64,000 nt of DNA from Candidatus Zixiibacteriota bacterium (lineage in GTDB: Bacteria > Zixibacteria > MSB-5A5 > WJJR01), in the NCBI GenBank assembly GCA_036397555.1, contig DASWIS010000001.1:120854-184853 (forward strand), written 5' to 3'. Positions 39,783 through 63,857 of the stretch are shown here, piece by piece. Every line of letters begins with the position of its first letter. Positions within the stretch are counted from its first letter, which is position 1. The notes below the pieces were generated by a model, which saw nothing but the letters and a program-made list of their open reading frames with translations, did no database searches and was not told the origin of the DNA. The translations under genes were made by a program, and so were the position numbers.

Positions 39783-40355
39783 ATGGCACGCATGACCTAC
39801 GATATCTTCAGCGGCACTCTCGAAGCGCATTCGTCGTCGGGGGGACCGTCGGTCATCACCGAAGCGCGATCCGGCGCATCACGCTGGTGGTTTGACTCGG
39901 AGATCAAGCAGCACGGCTCTCATGGATCGCTGCGGCACGTCCATGGCGGGCCAATCCCGCCGGGACGCTGGGAGATTCTCGCGCCGGGGACACCGCATCC
40001 CGACGGCGGGACACTGCGCCCCCACTGGATCCCGTTGCGCCCGTTGTTTCAAACCGCTCGAACACACCTGTACATCCATCCGTCCGGCGCGCAGGACAAC
40101 CTGAACACCGAAGGGTGCATCGTTGTCCGGGGCTCGATCATCTCCGGCAACATCAGTGGTACATATCGGCTCATCTATGACATGGTCGTCGCCGACCGTG
40201 GCGGCGAACTCACGGTGGAGCGCGGCGACACATGCCGTTACCAACTCGCGCGCGGCGACGATGTCATTGTCCGCGCGAGCGCTCCGACCATTGCCGCCTC
40301 CGAAGCGCATGCCGGCGCCGTGGCGCCGCGGACGGCACGCACGATGATTGTCTGA
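39783..40355 (+). CDS. DUF2778-family protein (Tlde1-like L,D-transpeptidase-fold putative T6SS effector)
   Basis: GGPIPPGRWEIL and YIHPSGAQDNLNTEGCIVV resemble the DUF2778/Tlde1 motifs (GPIPxGxY; H-x(n)-GC). Confidence 0.5.
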   Translation: MARMTYDIFSGTLEAHSSSGGPSVITEARSGASRWWFDSEIKQHGSHGSLRHVHGGPIPPGRWEILAPGTPHPDGGTLRPHWIPLRPLFQTARTHLYIHPSGAQDNLNTEGCIVVRGSIISGNISGTYRLIYDMVVADRGGELTVERGDTCRYQLARGDDVIVRASAPTIAASEAHAGAVAPRTARTMIV

Positions 40356-40373: not shown

Positions 40374-42536
40374 TTGATGATGGTACTTGATGTCGCCTCC
40401 GAATCGATCCTGACGTTCACAGTCGACGGGTTCGACGGCGAACTGCGGGTCCTGCAGTTGTCCGGACGCGAGGCGATGTCGGAATTGTTCCACTTCGGCG
40501 TCGATCTGGCCTGCCAGGATTCCGAGATCGATTTGGACGGCATCGTCGGTCAGGCCGCCCAGCTCCAAATCCATTACCTCGACGGTGCGCGGGAACTCAA
40601 CGGCATCATCAGCCGATTCGAGCAGGGGCATGTCGGCGAGACCTTCACCGCCTACTACGCCGAATTGGTGCCGAGCGTCTGGCTGCTGACCCAGCGATAC
40701 GACAGCCGCATTTTTCAGGAACAATCCGTCCCCGACATCATTCAAGCGGTGCTCAAAAACTCCGGGGCAACTTCGCGGTTCGCGTTGAAGGGCAGCCATG
40801 CGCCGCGCGAGTATTGCGTGCAGTACCGCGAGACCGATTGGAACTTCATCATGCGGCTGATGGAAGAAGTCGGCATCTTCTGTCAGTGGGAGCATCGGGA
40901 CGGCAAGGACATCCTGGTGATCGCCGACGCGCCCGGTGTGCACGTACCGATTGACGGTACGCCCGACGTTCTCTTCCGTGAGCCGACCGGTTTGGTCGAG
41001 GCCGAGGAGTTTATCTACCAGTTTCGCTCCGCGCAACAGATTCGGCCCGGGAAGATTACGCACACCGATTACAATTTCAAAACGCCGGCGCTCGACATGT
41101 TCAAAGATCAATCGGCCCGCCGAAATCCCGAGCTGGAAGTCTACGACTACCCGGGATTGTATCCCGATCAGGGGACCGGCGGGACACTGGCGCGCGCGCG
41201 ATTGGAGGCATTGCAATCGCCGCGGTTGAGCGCTGTCGGCGAGAGCACCTGCCGACGAATGATCCCCGGATTTAAGTTCACGATGCAGGAGCACCGGCGC
41301 GAATCATTCAACCAGGAGTATCTCCTCACGTCCGTACGGCACACCGCCAGCCAGCCGTTGGGTCAGGACGAGACCGGCGGGCGTTTTCATTATAGCAATT
41401 CGTTTGTCGCGATTCCGGCGTCGGTGCCGTATCGCCCGCCCCGCGTGACACCCAAGCCGGTGGTCGAGGGAACGCAGACCGCCGTTGTCACCGGCCCGGC
41501 GGGCGAGGAGATTTACACCGACGAGTACGGACGAATCAAAGTCCAATTCCACTGGGACCGCGAAGGAAAGAAGGACGACAAGTCATCTTGCTGGATCCGC
41601 GTTGCGCATCCGTGGGCGGGCCCCTCATGGGGCTCAATGTTTATCCCGCGCGTCGGATTCGAGGTCGCCGTGCAGTTTCTCGAAGGCGACCCCGACCGGC
41701 CGCTCGTCATCGGCTCGGTCTACAATGCGCAAAACATGCCGCCCTATCCGCTTGATGCGCAGAAAAACAAAAGCACGATCAAATCCAACAGCACCAAGGG
41801 CGGCGGCGGATCAAATGAACTCCGATTTGACGACACCAAGGGTTCTGAGGAAGTCTATCAACACGCGCAAAAAGACCTCACCATCCGTACCGAAAACGAC
41901 AAGAATCAGAGCACCGGCCACGACGAGACGCTGAAGATCGGCAACGACCGCAGCAAGGATGTCGGCAACAACGAGACGACGAAGATCGGCAAAGACCGCA
42001 CCGAAGAAGTCGGTGCCAACGAGACGATTAAGATCGGCACGGATCGCACCGAAGAGGTCGGCGCCAACGAAAAAATCAAGATCGGCGCCGACCGCACCGA
42101 AGAAGTGGCCGCCAACGAAACGATCAAGATCGGCGCCGACCGCACCGAGGACGTCGCTGGCAACGAGACGATCAAAATCGGGGGCAACGAGAGCATCACG
42201 GTCGGCGGATCGATGACGTTGAGTGTCGGCAGCGGCGGCACGATCAAGGTCGCCAAGGATGTGTCGACCTCGGTTGGCGCCGACTCCAGCACGTCGGTGG
42301 GCAAGGCGATGTCGACCGACGTCGGCAAGACCTACGACCTTTCCGCAGGCGATTCGATGACCATCAGCTCCAACAAGGACATCACGCTCAGTTGCGGCAA
42401 GGCGACCATCAATATGAAAAAAGACGGCACCATCACCATCAACGGCAAGGACGTCACCATGCAGGGGTCCGGGAAAATCACGGTGAAGGCGTCGAAGGAT
42501 GTCATCGTCAAAGGCAAAAAGATTTTGGAGAATTAG
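40374..42536 (+). CDS. vgrG: VgrG (TssI) spike protein
   Basis: gp27/gp5-like N-terminal regions. C-terminal tandem DRTEEVGANETIKIG beta-helix repeats. Confidence 0.9.
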   Translation: MMMVLDVASESILTFTVDGFDGELRVLQLSGREAMSELFHFGVDLACQDSEIDLDGIVGQAAQLQIHYLDGARELNGIISRFEQGHVGETFTAYYAELVPSVWLLTQRYDSRIFQEQSVPDIIQAVLKNSGATSRFALKGSHAPREYCVQYRETDWNFIMRLMEEVGIFCQWEHRDGKDILVIADAPGVHVPIDGTPDVLFREPTGLVEAEEFIYQFRSAQQIRPGKITHTDYNFKTPALDMFKDQSARRNPELEVYDYPGLYPDQGTGGTLARARLEALQSPRLSAVGESTCRRMIPGFKFTMQEHRRESFNQEYLLTSVRHTASQPLGQDETGGRFHYSNSFVAIPASVPYRPPRVTPKPVVEGTQTAVVTGPAGEEIYTDEYGRIKVQFHWDREGKKDDKSSCWIRVAHPWAGPSWGSMFIPRVGFEVAVQFLEGDPDRPLVIGSVYNAQNMPPYPLDAQKNKSTIKSNSTKGGGGSNELRFDDTKGSEEVYQHAQKDLTIRTENDKNQSTGHDETLKIGNDRSKDVGNNETTKIGKDRTEEVGANETIKIGTDRTEEVGANEKIKIGADRTEEVAANETIKIGADRTEDVAGNETIKIGGNESITVGGSMTLSVGSGGTIKVAKDVSTSVGADSSTSVGKAMSTDVGKTYDLSAGDSMTISSNKDITLSCGKATINMKKDGTITINGKDVTMQGSGKITVKASKDVIVKGKKILEN
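41946..42185 (+). repeat. ~42-bp tandem repeats (x5-6) inside vgrG encoding DRTEEVGANETIKIG units
   Basis: gaccgcaccgaagaagtcggtgccaacgagacgattaagatcggc and near-identical neighbours, read directly. Confidence 0.7.
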
Positions 42537-42547
42537 GAGCGACACAT

Positions 42548-42988
42548 ATGGAGACGCCAACCTGGGAACAACTGACAACGGCCGGAGCGGACGTGCGATT
42601 GGCGCGCATCGCCGCGATTACCGACGACGGCACCGTGCGGGTTGCCCTCTCCGATGATTGCATTGTGTCGGCGGATCGCCTGGAGAGCGTATCAATCGAA
42701 TCAGTCCGCCGGGCGCACGCCGACCAGCGCCGCGTCATGGTCTTTCTCGATCGACAGGACGAAACCCAGCCGGTCATCCTCGGAGTCGTCGCCGACCCGT
42801 TCTCAACGCAGGCGATTGTCGATGGCGAGAACTTCGAGATTCGCGGCGATCAACAGGTGACCCTGCGATGCGGCAAGGCGAGCATCACGCTGACGAGGGC
42901 CGGGAAGATCATGGTGCGCGGGACGTACCTCTCCTCGCGTTCGTCGGGCGTTAATCGCGTCAAGGGCGCGTCGGTCCAGATCAACTGA
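42548..42988 (+). CDS. small hypothetical protein with similarity to the extreme C-terminus of the adjacent VgrG
   Basis: Start METPTWEQ with aggag RBS. ...VTLRCGKASITLTRAGKIMVRGTY resembles the VgrG tail ...ITLSCGKATINMKKDGTITINGKDV. Confidence 0.45.
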   Translation: METPTWEQLTTAGADVRLARIAAITDDGTVRVALSDDCIVSADRLESVSIESVRRAHADQRRVMVFLDRQDETQPVILGVVADPFSTQAIVDGENFEIRGDQQVTLRCGKASITLTRAGKIMVRGTYLSSRSSGVNRVKGASVQIN

Positions 42989-43048: not shown

Positions 43049-44125
43049 ATGCAACTGATCAATGCCACGCGCATGGCCGCCGGGTTCACGCTCGGACGCG
43101 ACAGTTCCGGACGGGAGTCGGTCGTTGTCGTTGCCAAGGGGACATTCACGCTTCCATCCGACGGCGACAGGTCTCGTCTCCTCCCGATTCAGGAGCCGTT
43201 GGTCACGGCGGATGTCTTCTCCGGCGAGCCGGGGTTTTCCGCACCGATTTACGAGAGCGATTTTGCACCGCTCAAGTTGCGCTGCGATGTTCTGCTCAAC
43301 GGCAGCGCCCACGCGCCCGGCGGCAAGCCGGCCCAGCGTGTCGATGTCGCATTGCGTGTCGCCACGATCACCAAGTCGTTTGAAGTCGTCGGCCCGCGCA
43401 CCTGGCGGCAGGGGCTGGTGGGGTTTGCCGCATCGGAGGCGGAGTTTTTGACGGTCCTGCCGATTTCCTACGACAACGCGTTCGGCGGCGTCGACCAGAG
43501 CGATCCCGACAAGCCGCGATTTTATCCGTCCAATCACGCTGGCGTCGGTTACCACCACAATACATCGCTCGATTCTGTTGTCGGCCAGCCATTGCCGAAC
43601 ACCCAGGAGCCGGAGAACCCGGTCACCAATCCGCGCGGCGTCTATCGACCCATGGCATTCGGCGCGATCGGACGCAGTTGGGATCCGCGCCCGCAATATG
43701 CGGGGACCTACGATCAGCGCTGGATCGACGATGTATTCCCGTTTCTGCCGAAGGATTTCCGCAACGAGTACTTTCAGTGCGCCCCTCCCGATCAGCAATG
43801 CGACTACCTGCGCGGCGGTGAGGCGGTCGCGCTGGTCAATCTGACGCCGCTCGGCCGCTGTTCATTCCAGTTGCCGACTGTCGTTTTACCGGTCGAATTC
43901 ACCGATATCGACTCCAACCGCACGCGCGTCGATGCCGTCTGCGACACGCTGATCATCGAGCCCGATCAGTCCCGTTTCATGATGGTCTGGCGCGCGTCGC
44001 TGTCGCTGAAACGCGACATCATGGCCATGCGGCAGGCGATCGTCGGTACGCCGCCGCCCGGCTGGAAGCGGGCGCGCGATACCGGGAAAGTCTACTACCC
44101 CTCATTGGCGGCGCTCGGAGAGTAA
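43049..44125 (+). CDS. DUF2169-family T6SS adaptor protein
   Basis: MQLINATRMAAGFTLGRD...VVVVAKGTFTLP matches the DUF2169 N-terminus. Located between vgrG and the PAAR-like effector. Confidence 0.7.
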   Translation: MQLINATRMAAGFTLGRDSSGRESVVVVAKGTFTLPSDGDRSRLLPIQEPLVTADVFSGEPGFSAPIYESDFAPLKLRCDVLLNGSAHAPGGKPAQRVDVALRVATITKSFEVVGPRTWRQGLVGFAASEAEFLTVLPISYDNAFGGVDQSDPDKPRFYPSNHAGVGYHHNTSLDSVVGQPLPNTQEPENPVTNPRGVYRPMAFGAIGRSWDPRPQYAGTYDQRWIDDVFPFLPKDFRNEYFQCAPPDQQCDYLRGGEAVALVNLTPLGRCSFQLPTVVLPVEFTDIDSNRTRVDAVCDTLIIEPDQSRFMMVWRASLSLKRDIMAMRQAIVGTPPPGWKRARDTGKVYYPSLAALGE

Positions 44126-44129
44126 ATCG

Positions 44130-45155
44130 ATGAAACCGGCGGTGCTGGCGACGGGAATGGTGACGGCGATCGGGCTGGATGCACCGTCATCGTGCGCGGC
44201 GATCCGTAGCGGAATCACCGGCCACACCGAGACGCGGTTTCTGTATGACGGCGACTTCATCGTCGGCTGTCCCGTACCGTGGGCGGAGCCGGTGCGCGGT
44301 GTCGAACGGCTCCGCCAGATGACCGTCTCTTCGATCAGAGAATGTGCGGATGGTTTCGCCCGGTTGGATCCAAAGAAAACAGCTCTGTTGATCTGCCTTG
44401 CCGAAGCCGACCGTCCCGGACGATTCGACGGATTGGATGCGACTTTTGCAGACTCCGTTCACGCCGCACTGGGCTGGCCGCGCCATCCCGACTCCGCCGT
44501 GATCAACGACGGTCGTGTCGGGGGTGTGCGTGCTCTCGAACGCGCCCGCGCGCTGGTGGCGTCACGACGCGCCACGCATTGCATCGTCGCGGGCGCCGAC
44601 ACGATGCTGGCTGCCGACACACTGACAGCGGCCAGTGCGGCGCATCGATTGCAGACGGTGGAAAACTCCGATGGCTTCATACCCGGTGAAGCAGCGGCCG
44701 CGGTTCTGATCGGCATTCCCGCGGATAAGACCTGTCACCTCGAGTGCCGGGGCGTCGGCTACGGCGAGGAACGCGCCACCCGCGACTCGGGCGAACCGTT
44801 GCGTGGCGAAGGCATGGTCGCCGCCTTGCGGGCCGCCCTGGCCGATTCGTCGGTCGCATTGAATTCGCTCGACTACCGCATCACCGATTTGTCGGGTACG
44901 CAGTATGGGTTTAAGGAAGCGACCTTGGCATTGGACCGGCTGCTGCGTGATCGCAAAGAGGAATTCGACTTGTGGCATCCGGCCGAATGCATCGGGGAAG
45001 TCGGCGCGGCATTTATCCCGTGCGCGCTCGGAGTTGCGCTGACGGCCGCGCGTAAGGGGTACGCACCGGGACCGGGGCTGCTGTGCCACTGCGCCGCCGA
45101 TGGTCCGGGACGGGCCGCGGTTGTCCTGTACCGCACCGACAGGGAGCCGCGTTGA
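44130..45155 (+). CDS. thiolase-fold / 3-oxoacyl-ACP-synthase-like protein inside the vgrG effector operon
   Basis: 341 aa resembling KAS/thiolase fold. Its stop overlaps the next ATG (TGATG). The canonical KAS catalytic Cys motif is not obvious. Confidence 0.5.
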   Translation: MKPAVLATGMVTAIGLDAPSSCAAIRSGITGHTETRFLYDGDFIVGCPVPWAEPVRGVERLRQMTVSSIRECADGFARLDPKKTALLICLAEADRPGRFDGLDATFADSVHAALGWPRHPDSAVINDGRVGGVRALERARALVASRRATHCIVAGADTMLAADTLTAASAAHRLQTVENSDGFIPGEAAAAVLIGIPADKTCHLECRGVGYGEERATRDSGEPLRGEGMVAALRAALADSSVALNSLDYRITDLSGTQYGFKEATLALDRLLRDRKEEFDLWHPAECIGEVGAAFIPCALGVALTAARKGYAPGPGLLCHCAADGPGRAAVVLYRTDREPR

Positions 45156-46279
45156 TGTCGAACAAGGTATTCGCCAACACTCGCGAAATTTCCTGCAAAG
45201 CGGCGGCGGGCAAGTCGATCTGCAGCTTCCCCGATGTCTGCCTCAGCCCGCCCTCGCCCCCGGCGGGACCGGTTCCGATTCCGTATCCCAATACGGCATT
45301 CGCCAGTGATGCGACCAGCGGCTCCAAAAACGTGAAGATCTCCGGCAAGGAGATCATGCTCAAGAACAAGTCGTACTTCAAGAAAAGCACCGGCGATGAG
45401 GCGGCGACCAAGTCATTGGGTATGGGAGTGGTCACGCATCAGATTCAGGGCAAAGTCTACTTCGTCAGTTGGTCGATGGACGTCAAAGTCGAGGGACAGA
45501 ATGCCTGCCGCCACCTCGACATGACCACGCACAACCACATGTCGCCGACGCCGAACACCGGCCCGTGGCCGTACGCCGACACGCAGGCGATCGCCAACAT
45601 CAGCGAGTGCGATGGCGATGCCGGCGAAGCCAAGACAAAGTGCGCCGGTCAGAAGGGACCACCGAAGTGCACGGAGGCGTGTCGAAAGGCACAAAAATGT
45701 GTTCTCGTAAAGAAGTCGGACGATAAGAAGGCCTGTTGCGAGCATGAAACGACCGGACACCACTTGGTCGAGGTCCATTGCTTCTCGCCGACCGGCGAGC
45801 GCGGCGGTTCGCTCGAAGATTTGGAGTCATACAACCAGAACGCCGCGCCGTGTGTGTGTGCGTCACAGTCGCGTGCCGACGGATCGCATGGAGTCCTGCA
45901 CGCCGTGCAGGGTCAACTGGAAGGCGCGCACAACAGCAAACCGGGTGAGCCGAACTGCGAGTGGGAAGATGCCGGCGGAAAGATCAAAGGAAAGAAGAAG
46001 CGCGCCAACGCGGTCTCCAAGTGGACATACTCCGAGGCCCGTGACGCTGGCGCCAAGGCGCACAAAATCGCCTTTCCTCACTGCAACGAGGACTGCATCA
46101 AGAAGCAGTTGGATGCCTATCACAAAGACGAGTGCGGCCTCGACGATGACACGCCCTTGCGGAGCGATCCCGGCGCACCGAATCGTTCTGCCGGAACACT
46201 GAGCAAGAAACAGCAACAGCAGGTTGACGATGCGGTCGATGCCATCCGCGGCGTTGGAAACTCGTCCTCCAGCGTATGA
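45155..46279 (+). CDS. PAAR-like (DUF4150) T6SS effector with Cys-rich C-terminal GHH-motif (HNH/EndoVII-like) putative nuclease toxin domain
   Basis: N-terminus MSNKVFANTREI...FPDVCLSPP...PIPYPNTA...GSKNVKISGKEIMLKNKSYFKKSTGDEAAT matches DUF4150. C-terminus is Cys-rich and contains ETTGHHLVEVHC. Confidence 0.7.
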   Translation: MSNKVFANTREISCKAAAGKSICSFPDVCLSPPSPPAGPVPIPYPNTAFASDATSGSKNVKISGKEIMLKNKSYFKKSTGDEAATKSLGMGVVTHQIQGKVYFVSWSMDVKVEGQNACRHLDMTTHNHMSPTPNTGPWPYADTQAIANISECDGDAGEAKTKCAGQKGPPKCTEACRKAQKCVLVKKSDDKKACCEHETTGHHLVEVHCFSPTGERGGSLEDLESYNQNAAPCVCASQSRADGSHGVLHAVQGQLEGAHNSKPGEPNCEWEDAGGKIKGKKKRANAVSKWTYSEARDAGAKAHKIAFPHCNEDCIKKQLDAYHKDECGLDDDTPLRSDPGAPNRSAGTLSKKQQQQVDDAVDAIRGVGNSSSSV

Positions 46280-47241
46280 CCGATGCCGACACGTCCGTTG
46301 ACGATGGGGGTTCAGGACCAGTGAATCAGATCGGACCGACACCGTTCAGTTTTCTCTCCGGATTTGTACAGGACCGCAATACCGCCCGCGTCATTGCGCA
46401 AGTCGATCAATTGCGTGATCAGGGCTCCACTGCGTCACGACTGATGAAGTGGACGCGCGACGAGGGTCAGTGGATGTCCTTTCGTCTGGAGTGGACGGCG
46501 ACACGCATGTGGGTGCTTACGAAGCCGGAAATGCAGGTATTTGCAATCGGACCCGATGGCATCGTGAGTGTTGGTACCTCCAAGGGGATGAGTGAAGAGG
46601 AAGTCGATCCCGGCGACGATGGCCCGCGCCGTCGGGGACCGATCCGCGACTTGCAATTCATCGGATCGCACCTGTACGTCGCCGGGATGAGCCGTCAGGT
46701 ATACCGTCGTGAGGCACCGAATCGATGGATGCGACAAGATGACGGCGCCGTCCTGCCACGCGGAGATATGACAGTCGCGGGTTTCAATTCGATCGACGGT
46801 CTCGATGAGAATGACATATACGCGGTCGGATTCAATGGCGAAATCTGGCGACGGAGCGGCGAGAAGTGGCGTAAACTCGACAGCCCCACCAATCTCGTAC
46901 TGCACCGTGTGCGGGTGATTCGTCCCGACCTTGTCTTCATCTGTGGACAGGAGGGCGTGTTGATGCGCGGCAGCGGTGAGCGCTGGCGTATTATCGAACA
47001 CGATGCAACTGCGGAGGATTTCTGGGGGATGGAATGGTTCGGCGATAGACTCTATCTGGCCTGTGATGACGGTTTGTATGTGCTTGCCGCCGATGATTCG
47101 GTGAACGCGGTCGACACCGGCTTGGCAGCCGAATGGACCACACGTCATCTACACACTAACGATGGTGTTCTGTGGTCGTTTGGCCCCAAGAGCATTGCCT
47201 GGACTGAAGACGGCCGACTCTGGAACGATGTGACGCCATGA
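46276..47241 (+). CDS. hypothetical beta-propeller-like protein; candidate immunity protein for the upstream toxin
   Basis: ATG overlaps the toxin stop (ATGA). Repeated blade-like segments (YAVGFNGEIWRR, VFICGQEGVLMRG, LYLACDDGLYVL). No signal peptide. Confidence 0.45.
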   Translation: MTDADTSVDDGGSGPVNQIGPTPFSFLSGFVQDRNTARVIAQVDQLRDQGSTASRLMKWTRDEGQWMSFRLEWTATRMWVLTKPEMQVFAIGPDGIVSVGTSKGMSEEEVDPGDDGPRRRGPIRDLQFIGSHLYVAGMSRQVYRREAPNRWMRQDDGAVLPRGDMTVAGFNSIDGLDENDIYAVGFNGEIWRRSGEKWRKLDSPTNLVLHRVRVIRPDLVFICGQEGVLMRGSGERWRIIEHDATAEDFWGMEWFGDRLYLACDDGLYVLAADDSVNAVDTGLAAEWTTRHLHTNDGVLWSFGPKSIAWTEDGRLWNDVTP

Positions 47242-48485
47242 ACGCAGGTGTCGTCGCACCCGTCATCAGTCAGCACGCCGAGGAAGCGTCGTTCTTGTGG
47301 CTGCTGCGCAGCGCGGCCGTGAACGCCCCTCATTACACATTGCGCGATTTGGCGGAGCTGGATACTCGCGTCGAAGCGCATCTCGACGGCCTGCGCATCG
47401 CGGGCGCGGCCGGATGGGACATCTGTCGGAACGAGCTGGCCTGGGAGGAGCCGGGCGAAGTCTTCGTCGCCGGCTGCCTCGCATTCGCCAACGGCGACAT
47501 GACTCGCATGCGCGCAGTCCTCGATGTCGTTCAACAATCCGGACAGTGTATCCCAGGGGTGATCTCCGCGCTGGGATGGCTCGATTACGACGACGTGTCC
47601 GAGCGCGTCAAGCAACTCCTGTCGGCTCGCACGCCTGACCTTCGCCGCATCGGTATAGCGGCGATGGCGATCCATCGACGTGACGTCGGTGCCGATCTCG
47701 CATCGGCCATCGACGATGACGAGAGCTCACTTCGAGCGGCGGCACTTCGCGCCGCCGGTCAGTTGGGTCGGGCCGATTGCCTCTCTGCGCTGGTCTCACA
47801 TCTGGAAGATCCCGATGCCATGTGCCGCTTCTGGGCCGCCTGGTCGGCGGTACGCATGGGAGAACCCAATGGGTTGCATGTGCTGCGTGAACTGGCAGAG
47901 TCGGGTTTTGTGCGTCGTCAGCGAGCGCTCGACGTTGCCCTGCGCGCGATGCCTCTGCCCCAGGCGTTGCGATGGCAGAGTGCGCTTGCTTCAAATCCGG
48001 AGCTGGCACGACAAGCCGTCATCGCCGCCGGAGTGATCGGCGACCCATCGCTGGTTCCATGGCTGCTCGAGCGAATGGCGAGTCCCGAGCTGGCTCGCGT
48101 GGCGGGCGAGGCATTCACGCTCATTACCGGCGTCGATCTCGCGCTCGCCGACCTGGATGGTGACTCCCCGGATGGATTCGAACCTGCTCCGACCGATGAT
48201 ATTGCCGATGAATCGGTCGACATCGATCCGGACATTGACCTCCCTTGGCCTGACCCGGAAGCGCTGCGCGGCTGGTGGAATGAGCATCAGGGTGATTTTC
48301 GAAGCGGCGAGCGCTGCTTGCTGGGAAAACCGCCTGAGCCGGCCGCACTGAAAGAGATTCTGCGGCTGGGGTTTCAACGTCAGCGCGCCGCCGCCGCCAT
48401 GCAGCTTGCGTTGAGCGCTCCGAAGGCACTGCTGTACGAAATCCGGTCGCCCGGATTCCGGCAGCGCGCCGATTGGGGTGTCTAA
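47238..48485 (+). CDS. HEAT/PBS-lyase-repeat protein (possible second immunity/accessory protein)
   Basis: ATGA overlap with the previous gene. Alpha-helical repeats of ~30 aa (...LRAAALRAAGQLGRADCLSALVSHLEDPD...). Confidence 0.5.
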   Translation: MNAGVVAPVISQHAEEASFLWLLRSAAVNAPHYTLRDLAELDTRVEAHLDGLRIAGAAGWDICRNELAWEEPGEVFVAGCLAFANGDMTRMRAVLDVVQQSGQCIPGVISALGWLDYDDVSERVKQLLSARTPDLRRIGIAAMAIHRRDVGADLASAIDDDESSLRAAALRAAGQLGRADCLSALVSHLEDPDAMCRFWAAWSAVRMGEPNGLHVLRELAESGFVRRQRALDVALRAMPLPQALRWQSALASNPELARQAVIAAGVIGDPSLVPWLLERMASPELARVAGEAFTLITGVDLALADLDGDSPDGFEPAPTDDIADESVDIDPDIDLPWPDPEALRGWWNEHQGDFRSGERCLLGKPPEPAALKEILRLGFQRQRAAAAMQLALSAPKALLYEIRSPGFRQRADWGV

Positions 48486-48583
48486 GGGCCGTCTGCGGCG
48501 AATCTGCGGGGTGCATAGTAACCCCCTCACCCAACCGTCTTCGACATTGCCGTGGCAATACACAATGGAGTATCATCCAGCGC

Positions 48584-49363
48584 ATGACGCCAGATCAGAG
48601 GACTGTCCGCGACACGTCCGCCGACCGCTTTGACGACGATTCCGATGTCGCGATACTCGACGCCGAGCCGGAATCCCCATACCGCTACTACGTCGAAGAT
48701 GAAAAGCCGCGCGCCGATGCGGCATTCTTCGAATTGTTGTTGGCGCGAATCGTGCGCGGCGGCGGCGATGCCGATTCCGTGCGCGAGTACTGGCCACGCG
48801 TCGTCACCGCGCTGTCGGGCTTCAACGCGTTTCGCCTGGCCTACCTCAGCGAATCGGAAGTGGCATCGTCGATCCAATCGGTCGGTGGACGCTTCAGCGC
48901 GACACTGGGATCGCGTGCCCGGGACATAATCGCCTGGGCGGAGGCGTTCTGGCGCGTGCGTCAGATTTACGGATCGTTTCGCCAGTATATCCGATCATTC
49001 GATACCGATGGCATCGATGCCATGCTGGCCGATATGACGCAACGGCTGCCGGGACTGTCGCGCGAATTCCTGACCGAGTTCCTTCACGAAGCGGGAGAAC
49101 GGCTCCCGTCGACGGGAACCCAGCAGGGCGGACGGTCGCGCCGGCAGCGTCAGGGACGCGGTCGGCGGCAACAGCCCAAAAGGCAGCAGCCAGAGCCGCC
49201 GAAAGCAGAGTCGGCGCCGACCAGCAAAGCGCAGCCGACATCCGCCGCCGACGCAGACAAGTCGGGACCTAACCGCGGCAATAAGCGCGGCCGCCGACGC
49301 TTCTTTCGCCGACGCCGGGGTCGGCAACAGGGCGGCGATCAGGAAGCAAAGACCAAGCCATAG
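48584..49363 (+). CDS. hypothetical protein, weak Tag (3-methyladenine glycosylase I)-like core plus Arg-rich disordered C-terminal tail
   Basis: Start MTPDQRTV. YYVEDEKPRADAAFFELL...FNAFRLAYLSESEV loosely follows the Tag pattern. Tail RSRRQRQGRGRRQQPKRQQ...RGRRRFFRRRRGRQQ. Confidence 0.35.
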   Translation: MTPDQRTVRDTSADRFDDDSDVAILDAEPESPYRYYVEDEKPRADAAFFELLLARIVRGGGDADSVREYWPRVVTALSGFNAFRLAYLSESEVASSIQSVGGRFSATLGSRARDIIAWAEAFWRVRQIYGSFRQYIRSFDTDGIDAMLADMTQRLPGLSREFLTEFLHEAGERLPSTGTQQGGRSRRQRQGRGRRQQPKRQQPEPPKAESAPTSKAQPTSAADADKSGPNRGNKRGRRRFFRRRRGRQQGGDQEAKTKP

Positions 49364-49408: not shown

Positions 49409-50308
49409 ATGACCCACAGCAGAAGCATCAACAGCATCTGTGCGGTCGCCCTGCTGCTGACCGGCCCTGGCTGCACGCGCGGAGACACTCCCCAAATGGC
49501 TGAAACCAAGACTGCTTCGACATCGCGCCCAGTCGAATCAGGTCACGCTCCGGTCAACGGCATCCGCATGTATTATGAGGTACACGGCGGCGGAGATGAT
49601 GTCCCTCTCCTCCTGCTCCACGGGGGCGGGTCGACCATCGAAGTGACCTTTGGCCGGATCCTCCCTTTTTTCGCCTCACGCGGACGAGTCATCGCAGTCG
49701 AGGAGCAGGGGCATGGTCGCACCTCTGATCGCGTTGGACCGGTGAGCTTTGAGCGCACTGCGGACGATGTCGCGGCCCTGCTTCGCCACCTGGAGGTCGC
49801 ACGGGCCGATCTTCTGGGTTTCAGCAACGGTGCCAGTATTGCGCTCCAGGTTGCCATACGGCACGCGCCGGCCGTGCGAAAACTGATCTTTGCGTCGTCC
49901 ATCACGAAGCGGGATGGCGCAGATCCGCAGTTCTGGGAGTTCATCGCGCGGGCCGAGTTCTCTAATATGCCGCAGCCGCTTAAAGACTCATTTCTGCAGG
50001 TAAACCCGGACCCTGATCAGCTCAAAACCATGCATGAGAAGGATGCCGCGAGGATGCGCAGTTTTCAGGACGTGCCCGACAGTCTGGTGCGCTCCGTTCG
50101 GGCGCCGACGTTGATCCTCCTCGGCGATCAGGACATTGTGCGACTCGAGCATGCGGTTGACCTGACACGCATGATTCCGGGTGCACGGCTCATGGTTTTG
50201 CCGGGCGGACATGGAGATTATCTGGGAGAGTTATTGTCGATGTCCGGGGACGCATATTATCCCGCGTTGACGGCTGAGCTGATCAACGAGTTCCTCGATG
50301 CGCCGTGA
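49409..50308 (+). CDS. alpha/beta-hydrolase fold lipoprotein
   Basis: Lipobox LLLTGPGCT. HGGGS oxyanion region. GFSNGA nucleophile elbow. Confidence 0.7.
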   Translation: MTHSRSINSICAVALLLTGPGCTRGDTPQMAETKTASTSRPVESGHAPVNGIRMYYEVHGGGDDVPLLLLHGGGSTIEVTFGRILPFFASRGRVIAVEEQGHGRTSDRVGPVSFERTADDVAALLRHLEVARADLLGFSNGASIALQVAIRHAPAVRKLIFASSITKRDGADPQFWEFIARAEFSNMPQPLKDSFLQVNPDPDQLKTMHEKDAARMRSFQDVPDSLVRSVRAPTLILLGDQDIVRLEHAVDLTRMIPGARLMVLPGGHGDYLGELLSMSGDAYYPALTAELINEFLDAP

Positions 50309-57255: not shown

Positions 57256-57962
57256 ACGCGGTCGGCCCTGTTCAACTTCTGACCCGGTGCAGACGCACGG
57301 GCCGGCGCCGATGGCGCGATTGTGCAAAGCGCTGCACCTCTCCCGGCGCCCGGCCAATTTGCCCTGTGGGGACCTCAGATTTTGGCGGATTCTTAACTAA
57401 TTATCGGGCAATGCGTTTCGGGGACGATTATTCAGAGTCTTCCTTGCGGGTCGTTCCGAACGGGTCTGTCCGGAGATTGGCACTTCGGATGCGTCGAAGC
57501 ATTCGGACATCCCGGCCTGCCGGGACTCCTTAACACTATTCTATCGAGTGATACGTTGATGACTGTTGACAACCCGATGAAATGCAGTATCATAGTGACT
57601 GGCTATCCAGCCTTTTCCCTACAAGGGCGCCGTTCGGGATTTGCCACCCCGAAGACAACGAAAGGCCTGTGCTTATCAGCATCTGATGTGACCGAGTGGG
57701 TGAGTGACAGCGGAAGACAGTGCCGTTTCCGTCGAGACACACGCTCAAGCAAACAGGCGAGTTGGACAGTTCAGCTACCGCGTAGCAGCTACGTTTTCAG
57801 GCGCCCCTTGCTGACGAGACAAGATGTTGGACGAGTGGTCCCGAGCAACTCATGCCGCGCACAACTTGCGTCCGGTGCGTCATGTTCGGCGATCACGATC
57901 AACGACGGAATCAACGCGTGAAAATCCATATGCAAACTGACTCCCCAAGGAGGACTGAGGGT

Positions 57963-60900
57963 ATGAAACGATTTCTCATCTGGCTGTGTGCGTGCTGTCT
58001 GGTCGTGTTGTGCACGCCGCTGGCGCATGCGGCCGACAGAGTCGAGGTGGAATCCAAGCAGGTCAACGCCGGCGATGCCGGAGTGACGCTCGGCGTCAAC
58101 GTGCAAAACGACGTCGATTTGTTTGGATTGGTGCTGCCCCTTGAGTTCCGCTCCATGACCGGCGGAGCATTCTACCGCAGCAATTTCAGTTTTGTGGTAG
58201 GCGGACGCTTCGCCATCGCGGGCTTCGTCACCCAGATTTACTATGGCGTCAAGCAGGTCAACGCGGGCGGCTGCGATAATCTGCCCTCGTACTCGGGCAG
58301 TGCGACCAGCGCCGGGACCGCGACCGATTTCTACACATCCCCGGACGGGACTATGTGGTCCGGAATCGCGACAGCGTCACCTTACGTAATCGGTGACGAT
58401 TTCACGTCCGGTACGCCGTCGTTTGTTTACACCTTCGACGTGGACACGCTGTGCGGCACCTTTGAAGTAGACACGATGTGCACGACCCCGGGCAACCACC
58501 TCACGGGCGTCGATGCCGGCTTCGGGCCGGTGCCCCTTGCGTTCTCGAAGGGCACCGTCACCGTCTGCGAGCCGGCCGGGAATATCCCGCCGGTCGCAGT
58601 GTGTCTCGCCGACAGTCTGGACTTTGAAGTCGATTCGCTCTGCAATGCCACCGTCACTCCGGGCGACCTCGACAACGGTTCGTTTGATCCTGATGGGATC
58701 ACGGTCGATCTATCGCTCAATCCTCCCGGCCCGTTCGGGCTCGGCTGCCATGATGTCTGGCTCGTCGTGACCGACATCGCCGGCGACAAGGATTCGTGCC
58801 TGACGAAAGTGTGCATCGTCGACACCACGCCGCCGGAGGCGAAATGCCCCGCCGACATCATCGTGAGTAACGACCCCGACAGTTGCGGCGCGATCGTCAA
58901 TTTCAGCGCCGACGGCAATGACAATTGCAGCATCGACAGTATCAGCTTCTCACACCTTCCCGGCGACTTTTACCCGGTCGGCACGACGACGGTCACCATC
59001 GTGGTGTGGGACGGCTCGGGCAATGCCGACACCTGCTCATTCGACGTGACCGTCAATGACGCGCAGGCGCCGGTCGCCAAGTGTCCGGCCGACATCGTCG
59101 TGTCGAACGATCCGGACAGTTGCAGCGCGGTCGTTAATTACAACGTGACAGGCAACGACAACTGCGGCATCAACAATGTGACTTATGACATCTCCCCCGG
59201 ATCATCCTTCAATGTCGGTACGACAACCGTCACGGCGACCGTCTGGGACGACGCGGGCAACGGCGACACATGCTCGTTCGACGTGACTGTCGAGGACACT
59301 GAACCGCCGTCGATCACGTGTCCCGCCGATACGATTCTCCCGAATGATCTGGATGCCTGTACCACGCGCGTTTTCTTCTATGCTTCAGCGCGGGACAACT
59401 GCGGCATTGACAGCGTCACATACGACCATGCGTCCGGATCGTTCTTCCCGATCGGCACGACGACCGTCACCGCGACGGCGTGGGATGCGTCGGAAAATTC
59501 CTCAAGTTGTCAGTTCGACGTGATCATCGAGGACACGCAAGCGCCCGAGGCCAAGTGCCCCGGCGATATTTTCGTCCAGGTCGGCCCAACGACGGACGAC
59601 ACGGTCGTGACGTGGCTGGCCTTCATCAACGATAATTGTGACAGCGGCACGGTCGTCTGCACGCCGCCGTCCGGTTCGACTTTTGGATTGGGCGCGACGC
59701 GCGTTTGCTGCGTTGCGACCGATGCGGCCGGCAATGAATCGGATTCCTGCTGCTTCGATGTGGTCGTGTCGCAGGAGCCGCTGGATGCGCCGCCGGTCGC
59801 GCAGTGTCTCGCCGACAGCACCAGCTTCTATGTTGATACGCTTTGCGAAGTGACCGTCACGCCCGCCGATCTGGACAACGGGTCGTTTGACCCCGACAGC
59901 GGATTGGTCGATCTGGCGCTGAATCCCCCCGGTCCGTTCGCACTGGGCTGCCATGATGTCTGGCTCGTCGTGACCGATGACGAGGGCGACAAGGACTCGT
60001 GCCTGATGAGAGTCTGCATCGAAGACACGATTTCGCCGACGATCGAGTGCAAGGGCGATACGACAGTTTATGTGGAGTTCGACAAATGCTACGTCGAGTG
60101 GGATGCCTACGCCTGGTCCACGTACAGTGACAACTGCGCGCTGGACTTTGTGGATTGCTACTTCGAGGCCCCGGGCAAAGGCATTCCGGAAACGCTCAAT
60201 CCCGGCATCTACACGTTCTGGTGTGTGGCGGTGGACGAGTCCGGCAACTCAGATTCGTGCAGTTACACGCTCACGGTGCTCGACACGATCCCCCCGGAGA
60301 TCAGTTGCCCGCAGATCGATATTCAGGTCGAAAATGATTCCGGGCAGTGCGGCGCCGTTGTGACCTTTGAGCGTCCGGCCACCGATAACTGCGAGATCGA
60401 TTCCGTCATCTGCGTGCCGCCGTCGGGCAGCTTCTTCCCGGTCGGCGTGACGCCGGTCGTGTGCACTGCGTACGATATCCATGGCAACCAAAGTGAGTGC
60501 CGTTTCAACGTGATCGTCAACGACGTTGAGCCGCCCGTCATTACCTGCCCGGATGCGGACACGATCTACACGGAGCCGGACCAGTGCTATGCCTTCTTCG
60601 CGCCGTCGGACGGCGTGATCGCGACCGACAACTGCGACATCGACCGCGTCGATTGCGGATACGACGACAAAGGCGGACTGGGCACGCAGCAATTGTCGCC
60701 CGGCACGTGGTATTTCTACTGCGACGCCATTGATGTCAACGGCAATGTCTCGCGCTGCTATCGTACCGTCACGGTGATCGATAACCAGGCGCCGGAGCTC
60801 AAGTGCCCCGACGACATCTACAAGACGATCTGCAATCCGCAGGGCGACACGGTGCAGTTCACGGTCGAGGTGAACGACAACTGCGGCGCGCAGTTCGGCT

Positions 60901-63857
60901 GCAACTACACCTCCGGCTCGTTCTTCCCGGTCGGTGAGACGGAAGTCGTCTGCTGGGCATTAGACGACGCCGGCAATTTCGACACTTGCCGCTTCAAAGT
61001 TGTCATTATCGAGGAGACCTTCCGCTGGGATGTCCTGCCCGACTCGCTCTGCTTCGAGGCCGATTGCGGCGTCGATCCCGAGCCGATGTGCGCCTATGTC
61101 AGTCTGCTCGATCCGTGCTTCTTCAAGGACCAACAGGGCTGGGTGTGGGAAGCGTTCCTCAACGGCGACAACTGGCTGCGCATCGAACCGACAACCGGCT
61201 TTGAAGGCGACACCTTCTGTGTCTATATCGACGTCGACTCGCTGGAGCCGGGGCATTATGAAGCATGGGTCTGGGTCTGCACGTCCACCACGTCCACCAA
61301 GACCAATTTCCCTGAGTGCGACTCCGTGCTGGTCAAGCTTGATGTCCGCGATCCGGAGATCGGCGACATCGTGGCCAACCCCGACACGCTCTGCTTCACC
61401 TTCACCGGCGAGTGGAAGTGCGACACCCTGATCAATTGCGATGGGAAGAGCGATCCGGTCGGTGAGTGCGACACGAACATCAACTGCAACTTCGCCGATC
61501 AGTTGTGTCAGTGGGTCTATCTCGAGCACAACGGCTGCGGCGAGATCTGCTGGTACTGGTATGAGGCGTTTGAGGCCGCACCATGGATCAGCCTCATTGA
61601 ACCCGACAGCGGCACGACCCCCGATTCGGTCCTGATCTGCGTCGATCCGTGCGGACTGCCGGCGGGCAAGTACTATGACACGCTGATATTCTGTCCGTGC
61701 ATCGAGATCAAGGACGACGACGCGTTCGGTTGTGATGCTGTTGTGATCAAACTGGTGATCGAGAATCCGCCGATCCTCGCGCTCGATCCGACTGGTGTGA
61801 AGTTTGACATGGGCACACCCGACGCCGACACCATGGTGTATGTCAACGTGGTCAACCTCGGCGGCGGCGAACTGTGCTGGACCGCGTGGAACAACGCGAC
61901 CTGGCTGGACATCGACCCATACCTGGAGTTGAGAATCGGCGACGGTCAGATTTGCGTGTCGGTCGATACGACCGGGCTGGTCGGGCCCGACACGCTGGTC
62001 GACACGATCTATGTCGATGCCCGTTGCGCGCTGCTGAGTCCGGGATACGTGATTGTCACGCTGTGCCTCCCACCGCCCCCGTGCGCCGGCATCTGCGGGC
62101 ATGTCGTCGAGGTCTGCGACGTGTTTAACGGCAATTGCGAAGGGGCCATCCTCGACGCGTGCGTGCAGGCATGGACGTCCTACCCCGACGGCGAGATCGT
62201 CGACAGCGCCCGCACCGACGAGTGCGGCCGCTTCTGCCTCGATGAACTGGCTGAGGGAATCTACGACATCCGCGTCTATGCCGAGGGCTACTGCGGCGAC
62301 GTGATTGAAGACGTCGAGTGCGGCGTCACGGAGTTGTGTGTGGAGCTGGATTCGATTCCCTTCCAGCCGAACCCGGCATGGCCGTATTTCTGCGACTACT
62401 ATTCGATCGATGCCCGTCTCGAGGGTGTCCCGCTTGTACCGGGTGATGTCATCCTCGCGGTCGATCCCGACGGCGTCTATTGCGGTGTCACGGTCGTAGA
62501 GAATCCGGGCGAGTATCTGATTCACGTGCTCGGTGATGACCCCGGGACTCCGGGTGACGAGGGCGCCGAGGAAGGCGACAAGATCACGCTGCTTTTGAAC
62601 TGCGTGTGCCCGGCGATGCCCGACAGTCTGTGGACACAGCAGGGCAACTTCCAGTACGACGTCGACTTCGACTGCGGCACGATCACGATCTGCTGCGATC
62701 TGTGCTACCCGTTCAATCTGCTCTCGATCAACGTGATCCCGTTGGATGCCACGCTGCCGGACGTGTTCAGCTCGATCGAACCGGACTTCACCCGCGTTTG
62801 GAGCGCGACTTGTGCAGACGGCGATCTCTCGTGGGAACGTGATCGCCCGATCAACGATCTTAACTCGATCGATCCGTTGCACGGGTTTGGTCTGAAGGTC
62901 ACCGAGGAAGGCCTGACGCTTTGCATCACCGGCGTTCCGATTCCCGCGAACACCCCGATCGGGCTGTGCTCGGGTTGGAACTTCGTCAGTTATCTGCCGA
63001 TGGAGAACGACGATCTGGAGCATGCGCTCCAGAGCATCGATGGTCTCTACACCCGCGTCCTCGGGTACGATTGCGACGGCTGGCACACATTCGAGAGCGG
63101 CCGCGACATCAATGATCTGCTTTGCATGGACACGTGTCTCGGCTACTGGATCTTCATGGAAGACGAAGGCACGCTGGTGTATCCGTTGAGCGGATACGAG
63201 TGCAATGATGCCGTCGAGCCGGGAACAGGTAAGGTTGTGGGCGGCGGTAGTTTGTTGCAGCCCTCCATGTACTTTGCCGATTACTGGTCTGTCGGTGATC
63301 CGACCCTCGCCGGCCTGCAGCCCGGTGACGTGATTACGGCCAGGACGACTGATGGCGTTGCCTGCGGCGAGGTCGTGGCCGGAGTCTCCGGCGCGTTCCT
63401 CATGCACGTCTACGGTGACGACCCCAGCACGCCGGAGGTCGAGGGTGCGCAGCCGGGCGAAGTCGTCGAGTTCTTCGTCAACAGTCGTGCGGCATCCGTG
63501 GCGTCTGGCTCGTCGCGTTGGAGTGATCGCGGTTCCAGCGAGATCGCTCTGGTCGTCGGCGAGGCCGCCACAGTTCCCGGCGACTACCGTCTGGATCAGA
63601 ACTATCCCAATCCGTTCAACCCGTCGACGGCGATCAGCTTCGCTCTGAAGCACGATGCCGATGTCAAGCTGATGATCTACAACGTGTTGGGCCAGAAGGT
63701 CCGAATGTTGCAGAATGGCTTCTTGTCCGCCGGCACACATACCCTGACTTGGGATGGTCGGACGGATCTGGGCGACATCGCTCAAAGCGGCATATACTTC
63801 TATCGGATCGAGACACCCGAGTGGTCCGATGTGAAGAAGATGACGTTCCTGAAGTAA
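57963..63857 (+). CDS. giant (~1965 aa) cell-surface protein: ~10 HYR (hyalin-repeat) domains, a carboxypeptidase-regulatory-like domain, and a T9SS type-A C-terminal sorting domain
   Basis: Start MKRFLIWLCACCLVVLCTPLAHA (signal) with aaggagga RBS. Reiterated ~80-aa units AKCPADIIVSNDPDSCGAIVNF...FPVGTTTVT...DTCSFDVTV. C-terminus YRLDQNYPNPFNPSTAISFAL...YFYRIE matches the T9SS CTD (TIGR04183-like). Confidence 0.8.
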   Translation: MKRFLIWLCACCLVVLCTPLAHAADRVEVESKQVNAGDAGVTLGVNVQNDVDLFGLVLPLEFRSMTGGAFYRSNFSFVVGGRFAIAGFVTQIYYGVKQVNAGGCDNLPSYSGSATSAGTATDFYTSPDGTMWSGIATASPYVIGDDFTSGTPSFVYTFDVDTLCGTFEVDTMCTTPGNHLTGVDAGFGPVPLAFSKGTVTVCEPAGNIPPVAVCLADSLDFEVDSLCNATVTPGDLDNGSFDPDGITVDLSLNPPGPFGLGCHDVWLVVTDIAGDKDSCLTKVCIVDTTPPEAKCPADIIVSNDPDSCGAIVNFSADGNDNCSIDSISFSHLPGDFYPVGTTTVTIVVWDGSGNADTCSFDVTVNDAQAPVAKCPADIVVSNDPDSCSAVVNYNVTGNDNCGINNVTYDISPGSSFNVGTTTVTATVWDDAGNGDTCSFDVTVEDTEPPSITCPADTILPNDLDACTTRVFFYASARDNCGIDSVTYDHASGSFFPIGTTTVTATAWDASENSSSCQFDVIIEDTQAPEAKCPGDIFVQVGPTTDDTVVTWLAFINDNCDSGTVVCTPPSGSTFGLGATRVCCVATDAAGNESDSCCFDVVVSQEPLDAPPVAQCLADSTSFYVDTLCEVTVTPADLDNGSFDPDSGLVDLALNPPGPFALGCHDVWLVVTDDEGDKDSCLMRVCIEDTISPTIECKGDTTVYVEFDKCYVEWDAYAWSTYSDNCALDFVDCYFEAPGKGIPETLNPGIYTFWCVAVDESGNSDSCSYTLTVLDTIPPEISCPQIDIQVENDSGQCGAVVTFERPATDNCEIDSVICVPPSGSFFPVGVTPVVCTAYDIHGNQSECRFNVIVNDVEPPVITCPDADTIYTEPDQCYAFFAPSDGVIATDNCDIDRVDCGYDDKGGLGTQQLSPGTWYFYCDAIDVNGNVSRCYRTVTVIDNQAPELKCPDDIYKTICNPQGDTVQFTVEVNDNCGAQFGCNYTSGSFFPVGETEVVCWALDDAGNFDTCRFKVVIIEETFRWDVLPDSLCFEADCGVDPEPMCAYVSLLDPCFFKDQQGWVWEAFLNGDNWLRIEPTTGFEGDTFCVYIDVDSLEPGHYEAWVWVCTSTTSTKTNFPECDSVLVKLDVRDPEIGDIVANPDTLCFTFTGEWKCDTLINCDGKSDPVGECDTNINCNFADQLCQWVYLEHNGCGEICWYWYEAFEAAPWISLIEPDSGTTPDSVLICVDPCGLPAGKYYDTLIFCPCIEIKDDDAFGCDAVVIKLVIENPPILALDPTGVKFDMGTPDADTMVYVNVVNLGGGELCWTAWNNATWLDIDPYLELRIGDGQICVSVDTTGLVGPDTLVDTIYVDARCALLSPGYVIVTLCLPPPPCAGICGHVVEVCDVFNGNCEGAILDACVQAWTSYPDGEIVDSARTDECGRFCLDELAEGIYDIRVYAEGYCGDVIEDVECGVTELCVELDSIPFQPNPAWPYFCDYYSIDARLEGVPLVPGDVILAVDPDGVYCGVTVVENPGEYLIHVLGDDPGTPGDEGAEEGDKITLLLNCVCPAMPDSLWTQQGNFQYDVDFDCGTITICCDLCYPFNLLSINVIPLDATLPDVFSSIEPDFTRVWSATCADGDLSWERDRPINDLNSIDPLHGFGLKVTEEGLTLCITGVPIPANTPIGLCSGWNFVSYLPMENDDLEHALQSIDGLYTRVLGYDCDGWHTFESGRDINDLLCMDTCLGYWIFMEDEGTLVYPLSGYECNDAVEPGTGKVVGGGSLLQPSMYFADYWSVGDPTLAGLQPGDVITARTTDGVACGEVVAGVSGAFLMHVYGDDPSTPEVEGAQPGEVVEFFVNSRAASVASGSSRWSDRGSSEIALVVGEAATVPGDYRLDQNYPNPFNPSTAISFALKHDADVKLMIYNVLGQKVRMLQNGFLSAGTHTLTWDGRTDLGDIAQSGIYFYRIETPEWSDVKKMTFLK
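58601..58850 (+). repeat. intragenic ~250-bp segment duplicated at 59804-60053 (~80 % nucleotide identity, includes a 32-bp perfect match)
   Basis: ggctgccatgatgtctggctcgtcgtgaccga occurs in both copies. Both encode VCLADS...GCHDVWLVVTD...DKDSCL units. Confidence 0.6.

Follow-up and report, generated by a model that had tools for sequence, protein, structure and literature searches.

Proteins of the PRK06147 family, which includes PA0098 (TvpD) of Pseudomonas aeruginosa, are T6SS (type VI secretion system) accessory proteins. In a survey of 407 homologues, 74% were found to adjoin a gene for a DUF2169 protein and 52% to have a PAAR gene next, and the authors speculated that PRK06147 is a novel adaptor (Liu et al. 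2020, PMC7714669). Genes for a DUF6484 protein, a thiolase-like protein and an armadillo-like protein were later used to define ‘synteny type A’ of the DUF2169 loci (Sachar et al. 2025, PMC11883445); the same paper reports that Tse7-dependent killing needs PA0097, the DUF2169 protein, and states that the other three genes were unexamined. Here we describe a further family member, encoded by a 341-codon gene in a 64,000-nucleotide stretch of Candidatus Zixiibacteriota bacterium DNA (contig DASWIS010000001.1, positions 120,854 to 184,853; hereafter the window, with the coordinates of its features collected in Table 1).

PA0098 was given the name TvpD in a study that presents it as a co-chaperone within the Class II Tvp system. 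In the AlphaFold model of that study, PA0097 and PA0098 form a groove around the PAAR domain of Tse7, seated on a trimer of PA0096 (DUF6484) that is later replaced by VgrG1b, and the authors further proposed that filling the baseplate cavity may require Tvp proteins (Monlezun et al. 2026, EMBO J, PMC13373197). In Proteus mirabilis, the PAAR-GHH2 toxin PefD and its 320-residue immunity protein PefE are insufficient for killing, which needs the whole pef operon, and PefE alone neutralises PefD in Escherichia coli (Alteri et al. 2017, PMC5714391). The genes pefF and pefG, downstream of the P. mirabilis immunity gene, are both required for killing. Catalytic residues of the ketosynthase-like protein are mentioned in none of these four papers.

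The gene in the window runs from an ATG through 341 codons to a stop, with a GGAGAG motif ∼8 nt upstream of the start. Only 4 nt separate it from the end of the DUF2169 gene, and the last base of its TGA (45153–45155) is the first base of the effector ATG at 45155, a 1-nt overlap. That it is a real gene is confirmed by its relatives: an identical protein is already on record, labelled by NCBI as derived from a candidate division Zixibacteria metagenome-assembled genome, and the nearest non-identical relative among 5.8 billion proteins shares 59% identity (E=4e-116). When an exhaustive search was grouped into clusters of 50% identity, 335 of these had E<1e-30, a number that rose to 1788 at E<1e-10. 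The NCBIfam model NF004798 (PRK06147, ‘3-oxoacyl-ACP synthase’, where ACP is acyl carrier protein) matches it at 362.2 bits, above the cutoff of 342 (E=2.8e-108), aligning residues 4–337 with profile positions 7–345 of 349, and identity to Pseudomonas homologues in the same gene arrangement is 44–51%. These sequence grounds place the protein in the PRK06147/PA0098/TvpD family. It has the size of the described members (∼340 residues), namely PA0098 and, by position, P. mirabilis PefC and Vibrio parahaemolyticus VP1399; the likeness to PA0098 is one of family model, size and gene order. What sets it apart from the known members is its origin in an uncultured genome, probably of the Zixibacteria/FCB (Fibrobacteres–Chlorobi–Bacteroidetes) group.

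A Pfam scan of the protein gave no family at E<=0.01, and thus neither PF00109 (ketoacyl-synt) nor PF02801 (Ketoacyl-synt_C); a precomputed PF00109 match is present in just 3 of the 120 relatives listed. Sequence similarity to FabF-type proteins is weak (E ∼1e-4 to 1e-6, with the NCBIfam FabF-type models at ∼1e-4). The AlphaFold2 model, made with 31 relatives, has a mean predicted local distance difference test (pLDDT) score of 82.7 and a predicted template modelling (pTM) score of 0.85, and Foldseek matches it to FabF (TMq ∼0.7). As modelled, the protein keeps the fold of elongating ketosynthases (KS), that is, the thiolase fold of the KS and chain length factor (CLF) type. Mean column identity among close relatives is 62%, with many nearly invariant charged residues. 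Residues 29–51 (44214–44282 in the window) have pLDDT <50 yet are conserved in sequence (T35, F37, G41, G46, V49, P50), which makes this segment a candidate disorder-to-order region for binding a partner. A 556-residue relative (P0189), examined as a fusion that might reveal a partner, proved to be the same domain with insertions only.

We then compared the protein with the Cys-His-His triad of β-ketoacyl-ACP synthases (KAS). The nucleophilic cysteine (FabF Cys163, FabH Cys112) corresponds to Arg129: when the profile is aligned with human mitochondrial KAS from the PDB, ‘akGrvgg’ stands against ‘STACTTG’, hhalign to FabF and to FabH agrees, and no cysteine lies within ∼20 residues of position 129 in the protein. 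The first histidine (FabF His303, FabH His244) corresponds to Asp253, with ‘ITDLSGT’ set against ‘NAHGTST’ in alignments to PDB FabF chains. Glu290, the least certain of the three, takes the place of FabF His340 and FabH Asn274 in global hhalign alignments to both enzymes and in a hidden Markov model (HMM) alignment to the FabH ‘HGNTSAASVP’ motif. The FabH alignments are of low confidence and agree with FabF in the residue mapping; E. coli FabF, FabB and FabH sequences served as references, and the cysteine and first-histidine mapping was checked separately on PDB sequences. In the predicted structure, Arg129 lies at the N-terminus of helix 128–144, the nucleophile elbow, Asp253 directly follows strand 249–252, and Glu290 is two residues ahead of helix 292–309, a secondary structure that agrees with the mapping of all three residues. 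Motif alignment by hand suggests that ‘CAADGPGR’ stands in place of the gatekeeper loop of FabF (‘SFGFGG’); the conservation of D324 and R328 was measured in the family alignment.

These replacements extend throughout the family. Among 123 representatives (at <=50% identity, and 33–50% identical to the window protein), position 129 is basic in 100 (R77 K12 H11) and never cysteine; the remaining 23 carry S, A, Q, G, P, V or E, with glutamine in three. Position 253 is aspartate in 105 of the 123 and histidine in none, and position 290 is acidic in 107 (E74 D33). No cysteine or histidine is family-invariant, the counts being 91/123 for C22, 91/123 for H283 and 53/123 for C287. A basic residue 129 and an acidic residue 290 covary: 290 is acidic in 97 and not in 3 of the representatives with a basic 129, against 10 and 13 when 129 is not basic (Fisher p=4e-9, uncorrected for phylogeny). 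The three catalytic side chains touch in KAS enzymes; from this and from the covariation we infer a buried Arg-Asp/Glu ion-pair cluster, in which Arg129, Asp253 and Glu290 would form a salt-bridge network that fills or stabilises the empty pocket. The alignments identify the protein as a pseudoenzyme that, together with its whole family, has lost the Cys-His-His triad. A preliminary description of the window, made from the DNA letters, had noticed a KAS-fold-like protein of 341 residues in which no canonical triad could be seen, and had proposed alignment to FabH and FabF as a check; size, fold and missing triad are all confirmed, and the alignment found arginine, aspartate and glutamate where an intact triad would have stood. 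It had also placed the gene between a DUF2169 adaptor and a PAAR toxin with a 1-nt overlap, which is correct as to position and overlap, but the domain is PAAR-like (DUF4150) and not a canonical PAAR.

The genomic setting of the family was examined in a scan of one genome per species, which yielded 492 genomes with a relative, from Acidobacteriota, Nitrospirota, Planctomycetota, Verrucomicrobiota, Gemmatimonadota, Desulfobacterota, Zixibacteria, Pseudomonas, Azotobacter and others; gene order was counted in the best 80 loci. A DUF2169 gene lies directly upstream of the ketosynthase-like gene in 79 of the 80, the exception falling at a contig end, and a PAAR-like domain is encoded downstream in 77, the remaining three loci ending at a contig edge. 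DUF6484-like proteins (73/80), VgrG (68/80), TIGR02270 proteins (64/80) and homologues of the 321-residue open reading frame (ORF) that follows the effector gene (61/80) are also frequent. All six sampled loci with the 321-residue ORF have a Tox-GHH2 domain, and all four sampled loci without it have other C-terminal domains (deaminase-like, HNH-like or unassigned). Since the 321-residue ORF tracks Tox-GHH2 and agrees with PefE in size and position, it is probably the cognate immunity protein; PefE, a proven immunity protein, sits at the same operon position (PMC5714391). The ketosynthase-like gene is retained whatever the toxin domain, and also beside bare PAAR-like proteins of 131–149 residues. 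This persistence across toxin types and bare PAAR-like proteins points to a partner in the delivery domain or in the spike and not in the toxin.

Three of these loci (L002, L046 and L073) have a bare PAAR-like protein of 137–149 residues with no toxin domain alongside the ketosynthase-like gene, and in two of them (L002 and L073) the TIGR02270 gene directly follows the bare PAAR-like gene; the TIGR02270 protein stays with the module whatever the toxin. Tandem DUF2169/PRK06147/PAAR-like modules, or extra DUF2169 or PAAR-like copies, occur in L025 (332–2914 and 3904–6430), L050 and L062, which suggests duplication and diversification of the module.

We consider it probable that the protein is a pseudoenzyme co-chaperone acting as in the Class II Tvp model, with the mechanism taken from the published models of homologues. 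Translational coupling would keep the amounts of TvpD and of its neighbours at a fixed ratio. TvpD and the DUF2169 chaperone (TvpA) would cradle the effector nuclease by its PAAR-like domain (DUF4150). They would do so first on a trimer of TvpC, the small DUF6484 protein and a putative mimic of the VgrG tip, before the effector is passed on to VgrG itself and fired. In TvpD, the conserved, covarying Arg129/Asp253/Glu290 cluster occupies what was once the active site. A non-catalytic scaffold or chaperone for effector loading was what the preliminary description had suggested, and the suggestion gains support from the loss of the triad and from the placement between DUF2169 and PAAR-like genes in the 80 loci with any toxin; it also matches the hypotheses of an adaptor (PMC7714669) and of a co-chaperone (PMC13373197).

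The product names given by the Joint Genome Institute and NCBIfam would instead make the protein a working β-ketoacyl-ACP synthase (‘3-oxoacyl-ACP synthase I’) that makes or modifies a lipid, and the genuine KS-type fold and the weak similarity to FabF are in keeping with this; but with the nucleophile replaced by arginine, both histidine positions acidic, the gatekeeper and oxyanion loop (‘GFGG’) apparently replaced, no Pfam ketoacyl-synt match, and adjacent genes that all serve the T6SS spike or its effector and include none for an ACP, a KS partner or another lipid function, an active KAS is effectively excluded. We therefore rejected that reading, for want of both the triad and the Pfam domains. 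Thiolase-fold proteins can also serve as non-catalytic subunits, as do PqsB and PhlC-type partners and CLF (KS-β), which has glutamine at the cysteine position and pairs with an adjacent active KS-α in a biosynthetic pathway. A CLF-like role as a ketosynthase partner was rejected too, as the window protein has arginine and not glutamine at the nucleophile position and no KS gene nearby; its proposed partners are instead the DUF2169 protein and the PAAR-like domain. Immediate position upstream of the toxin gene and translational coupling to it could mean that its target is the toxin domain and not the PAAR-like domain, the protein being an additional immunity factor or a holder of the nuclease in the producer cell. 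This is barely credible, given that the gene persists with non-GHH2 toxins and with bare PAAR-like proteins, that a different gene, the 321-residue ORF, tracks GHH2, and that PefE needs no help to neutralise PefD in E. coli (PMC5714391); a factor specific for the toxin domain was rejected for the first two of these reasons.

We regard it as improbable, too, that TvpD is a structural filler or a secreted passenger of the spike, occupying the baseplate cavity or travelling with VgrG, as opposed to a recycled cytoplasmic chaperone. Such a role would suit the cavity-filling proposal, and a faint hint of it may be read in a mirror-tree analysis of 48 loci, in which TvpD distances follow VgrG as strongly as TvpA (partial r 0.42 vs 0.39), but the AlphaFold models put PA0098 away from VgrG (PMC13373197). 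The mirror-tree correlations of TvpD were 0.86 with TvpA, 0.82 with VgrG, 0.82 with TIGR02270 and 0.47 with the PAAR-like domain, the last being a domain that varies little. A reading that we hold to be unlikely, with rather more in its favour, is that of a non-canonical enzyme or ligand sensor, in which the remodelled pocket (the Arg/Asp/Glu residues with the conserved C22, H283, D324 and R328) would accommodate a small molecule, an acyl group or a peptide segment, and the protein would modify the effector or its PAAR-like domain, or gate loading. The level of conservation, with its near-invariant charged residues, is high for a mere scaffold, and the three ex-catalytic positions are conserved and not drifting. 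Set against this are the absence of any family-invariant cysteine or histidine, the range of non-basic residues that position 129 tolerates, a covariation that fits a structural ion pair, and a neighbourhood with no cofactor or substrate genes.

Several points weigh against the co-chaperone reading and the pocket that we draw for it. The chaperone role derives from synteny and from AlphaFold models of the P. aeruginosa homologue only, and in the literature we found no deletion, pull-down or structure for any PRK06147/TvpD member. The mirror-tree gave no extra co-evolution signal between TvpD and the PAAR-like domain (partial r = -0.01). The C-terminal third of the protein gave only chance matches to PDB sequences, with no KAS found there by sequence, and the mapping of Glu290 draws on low-confidence alignment regions. 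The Arg-Asp-Glu contact is taken from homologous positions and from a covariation that is uncorrected for phylogeny. Lastly, the strongly conserved polar residues R26, E92, R95, D157, R173, E214, R250, E263 and R328 could serve ligand-binding or catalysis of a non-KAS kind.

Compared with FabF, FabB and the KS-α of type II polyketide synthases (PKS), the protein is ∼70 residues shorter and 13–19% identical; the fold is shared, while arginine, aspartate and glutamate stand for cysteine and the two histidines and the context is neither lipid nor polyketide synthesis. Nor does it have the Cys-His-Asn triad of FabH and type III PKS, given Arg129, Asp253 and Glu290. With the T6SS effector chaperones (DUF2169/Tap2/TvpA, DUF4123/Tap-Tec, DUF1795/Eag and co-TecT) it has in common a gene directly upstream of the cognate spike-bound effector, and conservation with the delivery domain and not the toxin (PMC7714669). 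Unlike them, TvpD has an unrelated, enzyme-derived fold, and is nearly always found with, and downstream of, a DUF2169 chaperone, not alone.

Table 1. Features of the effector module and its surroundings, with the three residues at former catalytic positions (coordinates refer to the window).
Feature	Coordinates	Strand	Remarks
190-aa ORF	39783..40355	+	No Pfam/NCBIfam match
VgrG spike protein (TssI)	40374..42536	+	5' end is a mechanical ORF start (TTG); Phage_GPD 4e-94, Gp5_trimer_C, Phage_base_V; TIGR03361 1.6e-189
146-aa divergent DUF6484 / TvpC-like protein	42548..42988	+	AGGAG 9 nt before ATG; DUF6484 E=0.019, below cutoff
DUF2169 chaperone (TvpA / PA0097-like)	43049..44125	+	PF09937 E=2.6e-93
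Target gene, 341-aa ketosynthase-fold protein predicted to be catalytically dead (PRK06147 / TvpD / PA0098-like)	44130..45155	+	
Arg129 codon CGT, at KAS nucleophilic Cys (FabF Cys163 / FabH Cys112)	44514..44516	+	Profile alignment, hhalign
Asp253 codon GAT, at FabF His303 / FabH His244	44886..44888	+	phmmer to PDB FabF chains, hhalign
Glu290 codon GAA, at FabF His340 / FabH Asn274; least certain of three	44997..44999	+	hhalign, HMM alignment
Effector: N-terminal PAAR-like (DUF4150), C-terminal Tox-GHH2 HNH-type nuclease (Tse7 / PefD-like)	45155..46279	+	PF13665 3e-35, PF15635 1.5e-14
321-aa candidate immunity protein (PefE / Tsi7-like)	46276..47241	+	4-nt start/stop overlap with toxin gene; no match in Pfam or NCBIfam
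TIGR02270 HEAT/armadillo-like repeat protein, conserved module component	47238..48485	+	TIGR02270 8e-118, Pfam HEAT_2
296-aa ORF	48473..49363	+	No Pfam/NCBIfam match
Alpha/beta hydrolase gene	49409..50308		
2001-aa HYR-repeat protein	57852..63857	+	Type IX secretion C-terminal sorting domain

The module in the window has the gene order of Class II Tvp and type A loci: VgrG, DUF6484, DUF2169, the ketosynthase-like protein, DUF4150-Tox-GHH2, a ∼320-residue immunity protein and a TIGR02270/armadillo-like protein (PMC11883445; PMC13373197). We assign it to Class II Tvp, DUF2169 synteny type A. Its genes are spaced by <=60 nt or overlap by 1–4 nt, and judged by position only we infer that the TIGR02270 ORF is the equivalent of PefF. 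It differs from known Tvp modules in that its DUF6484 partner is too divergent for Pfam and in that it forms the end of a main T6SS cluster, which is present in full in the window (FHA-C, TssK, TssL, TssM, TagF, TssA, TssB, TssC, Hcp, TssE, TssF, TssG and ClpV). The divergent 146-residue protein is 31–49% identical to its positional homologues, 29 of 30 of which match DUF6484 (best 9e-24), and an OB (oligonucleotide/oligosaccharide-binding) fold followed by a short β-prism, as a mimic of the VgrG tip, is proposed for this TvpC-like protein. Its conserved C-terminus, ‘CGKASITLTRAGK...SVQIN’, resembles the VgrG β-prism, and in related loci the VgrG of the window also matches, by phmmer, the counterpart of the 146-residue ORF.

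The 296- and 190-residue ORFs, which lie within the T6SS/effector operon or on its border, have almost no counterparts in the 80 related loci (2 and 0 matches), which marks them as lineage-specific; the alpha/beta hydrolase gene comes after the 296-residue ORF. Further downstream is the HYR-repeat protein, whose sorting domain points to a host of the FCB group, in keeping with the Zixibacteria label of the identical protein on record, so that the genome appears to carry a full T6SS plus cargo of a type IX secretion system (T9SS).

Earlier papers had already described the family and its synteny and put forward the co-chaperone hypothesis, and what is added here is modest, namely the family-wide replacement of the triad by Arg/Asp/Glu and the covariation. 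It is unlikely, but of some consequence if true, that the Arg/Asp/Glu cluster and segment 29–51 together form a binding site, whether for part of the effector, such as the linker that follows its PAAR-like domain, or for a metabolite, for instance an acyl thioester. As a gate or sensor, TvpD would in that case license loading of the spike, and would be a regulatory chaperone of enzyme origin without parallel among the T6SS adaptors known. Independently of this, Arg129, Asp253, Glu290 and segment 29–51 offer mutational targets for TvpD function. The database name ‘3-oxoacyl-ACP synthase’ leads metabolic reconstruction astray for many genomes, metagenome-assembled ones included, and the missing nucleophile in every representative examined supports renaming the family as a T6SS accessory pseudoenzyme. 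With this assignment, the window's Class II Tvp effector-loading module, which comes from a poorly sampled lineage, is fully annotated.
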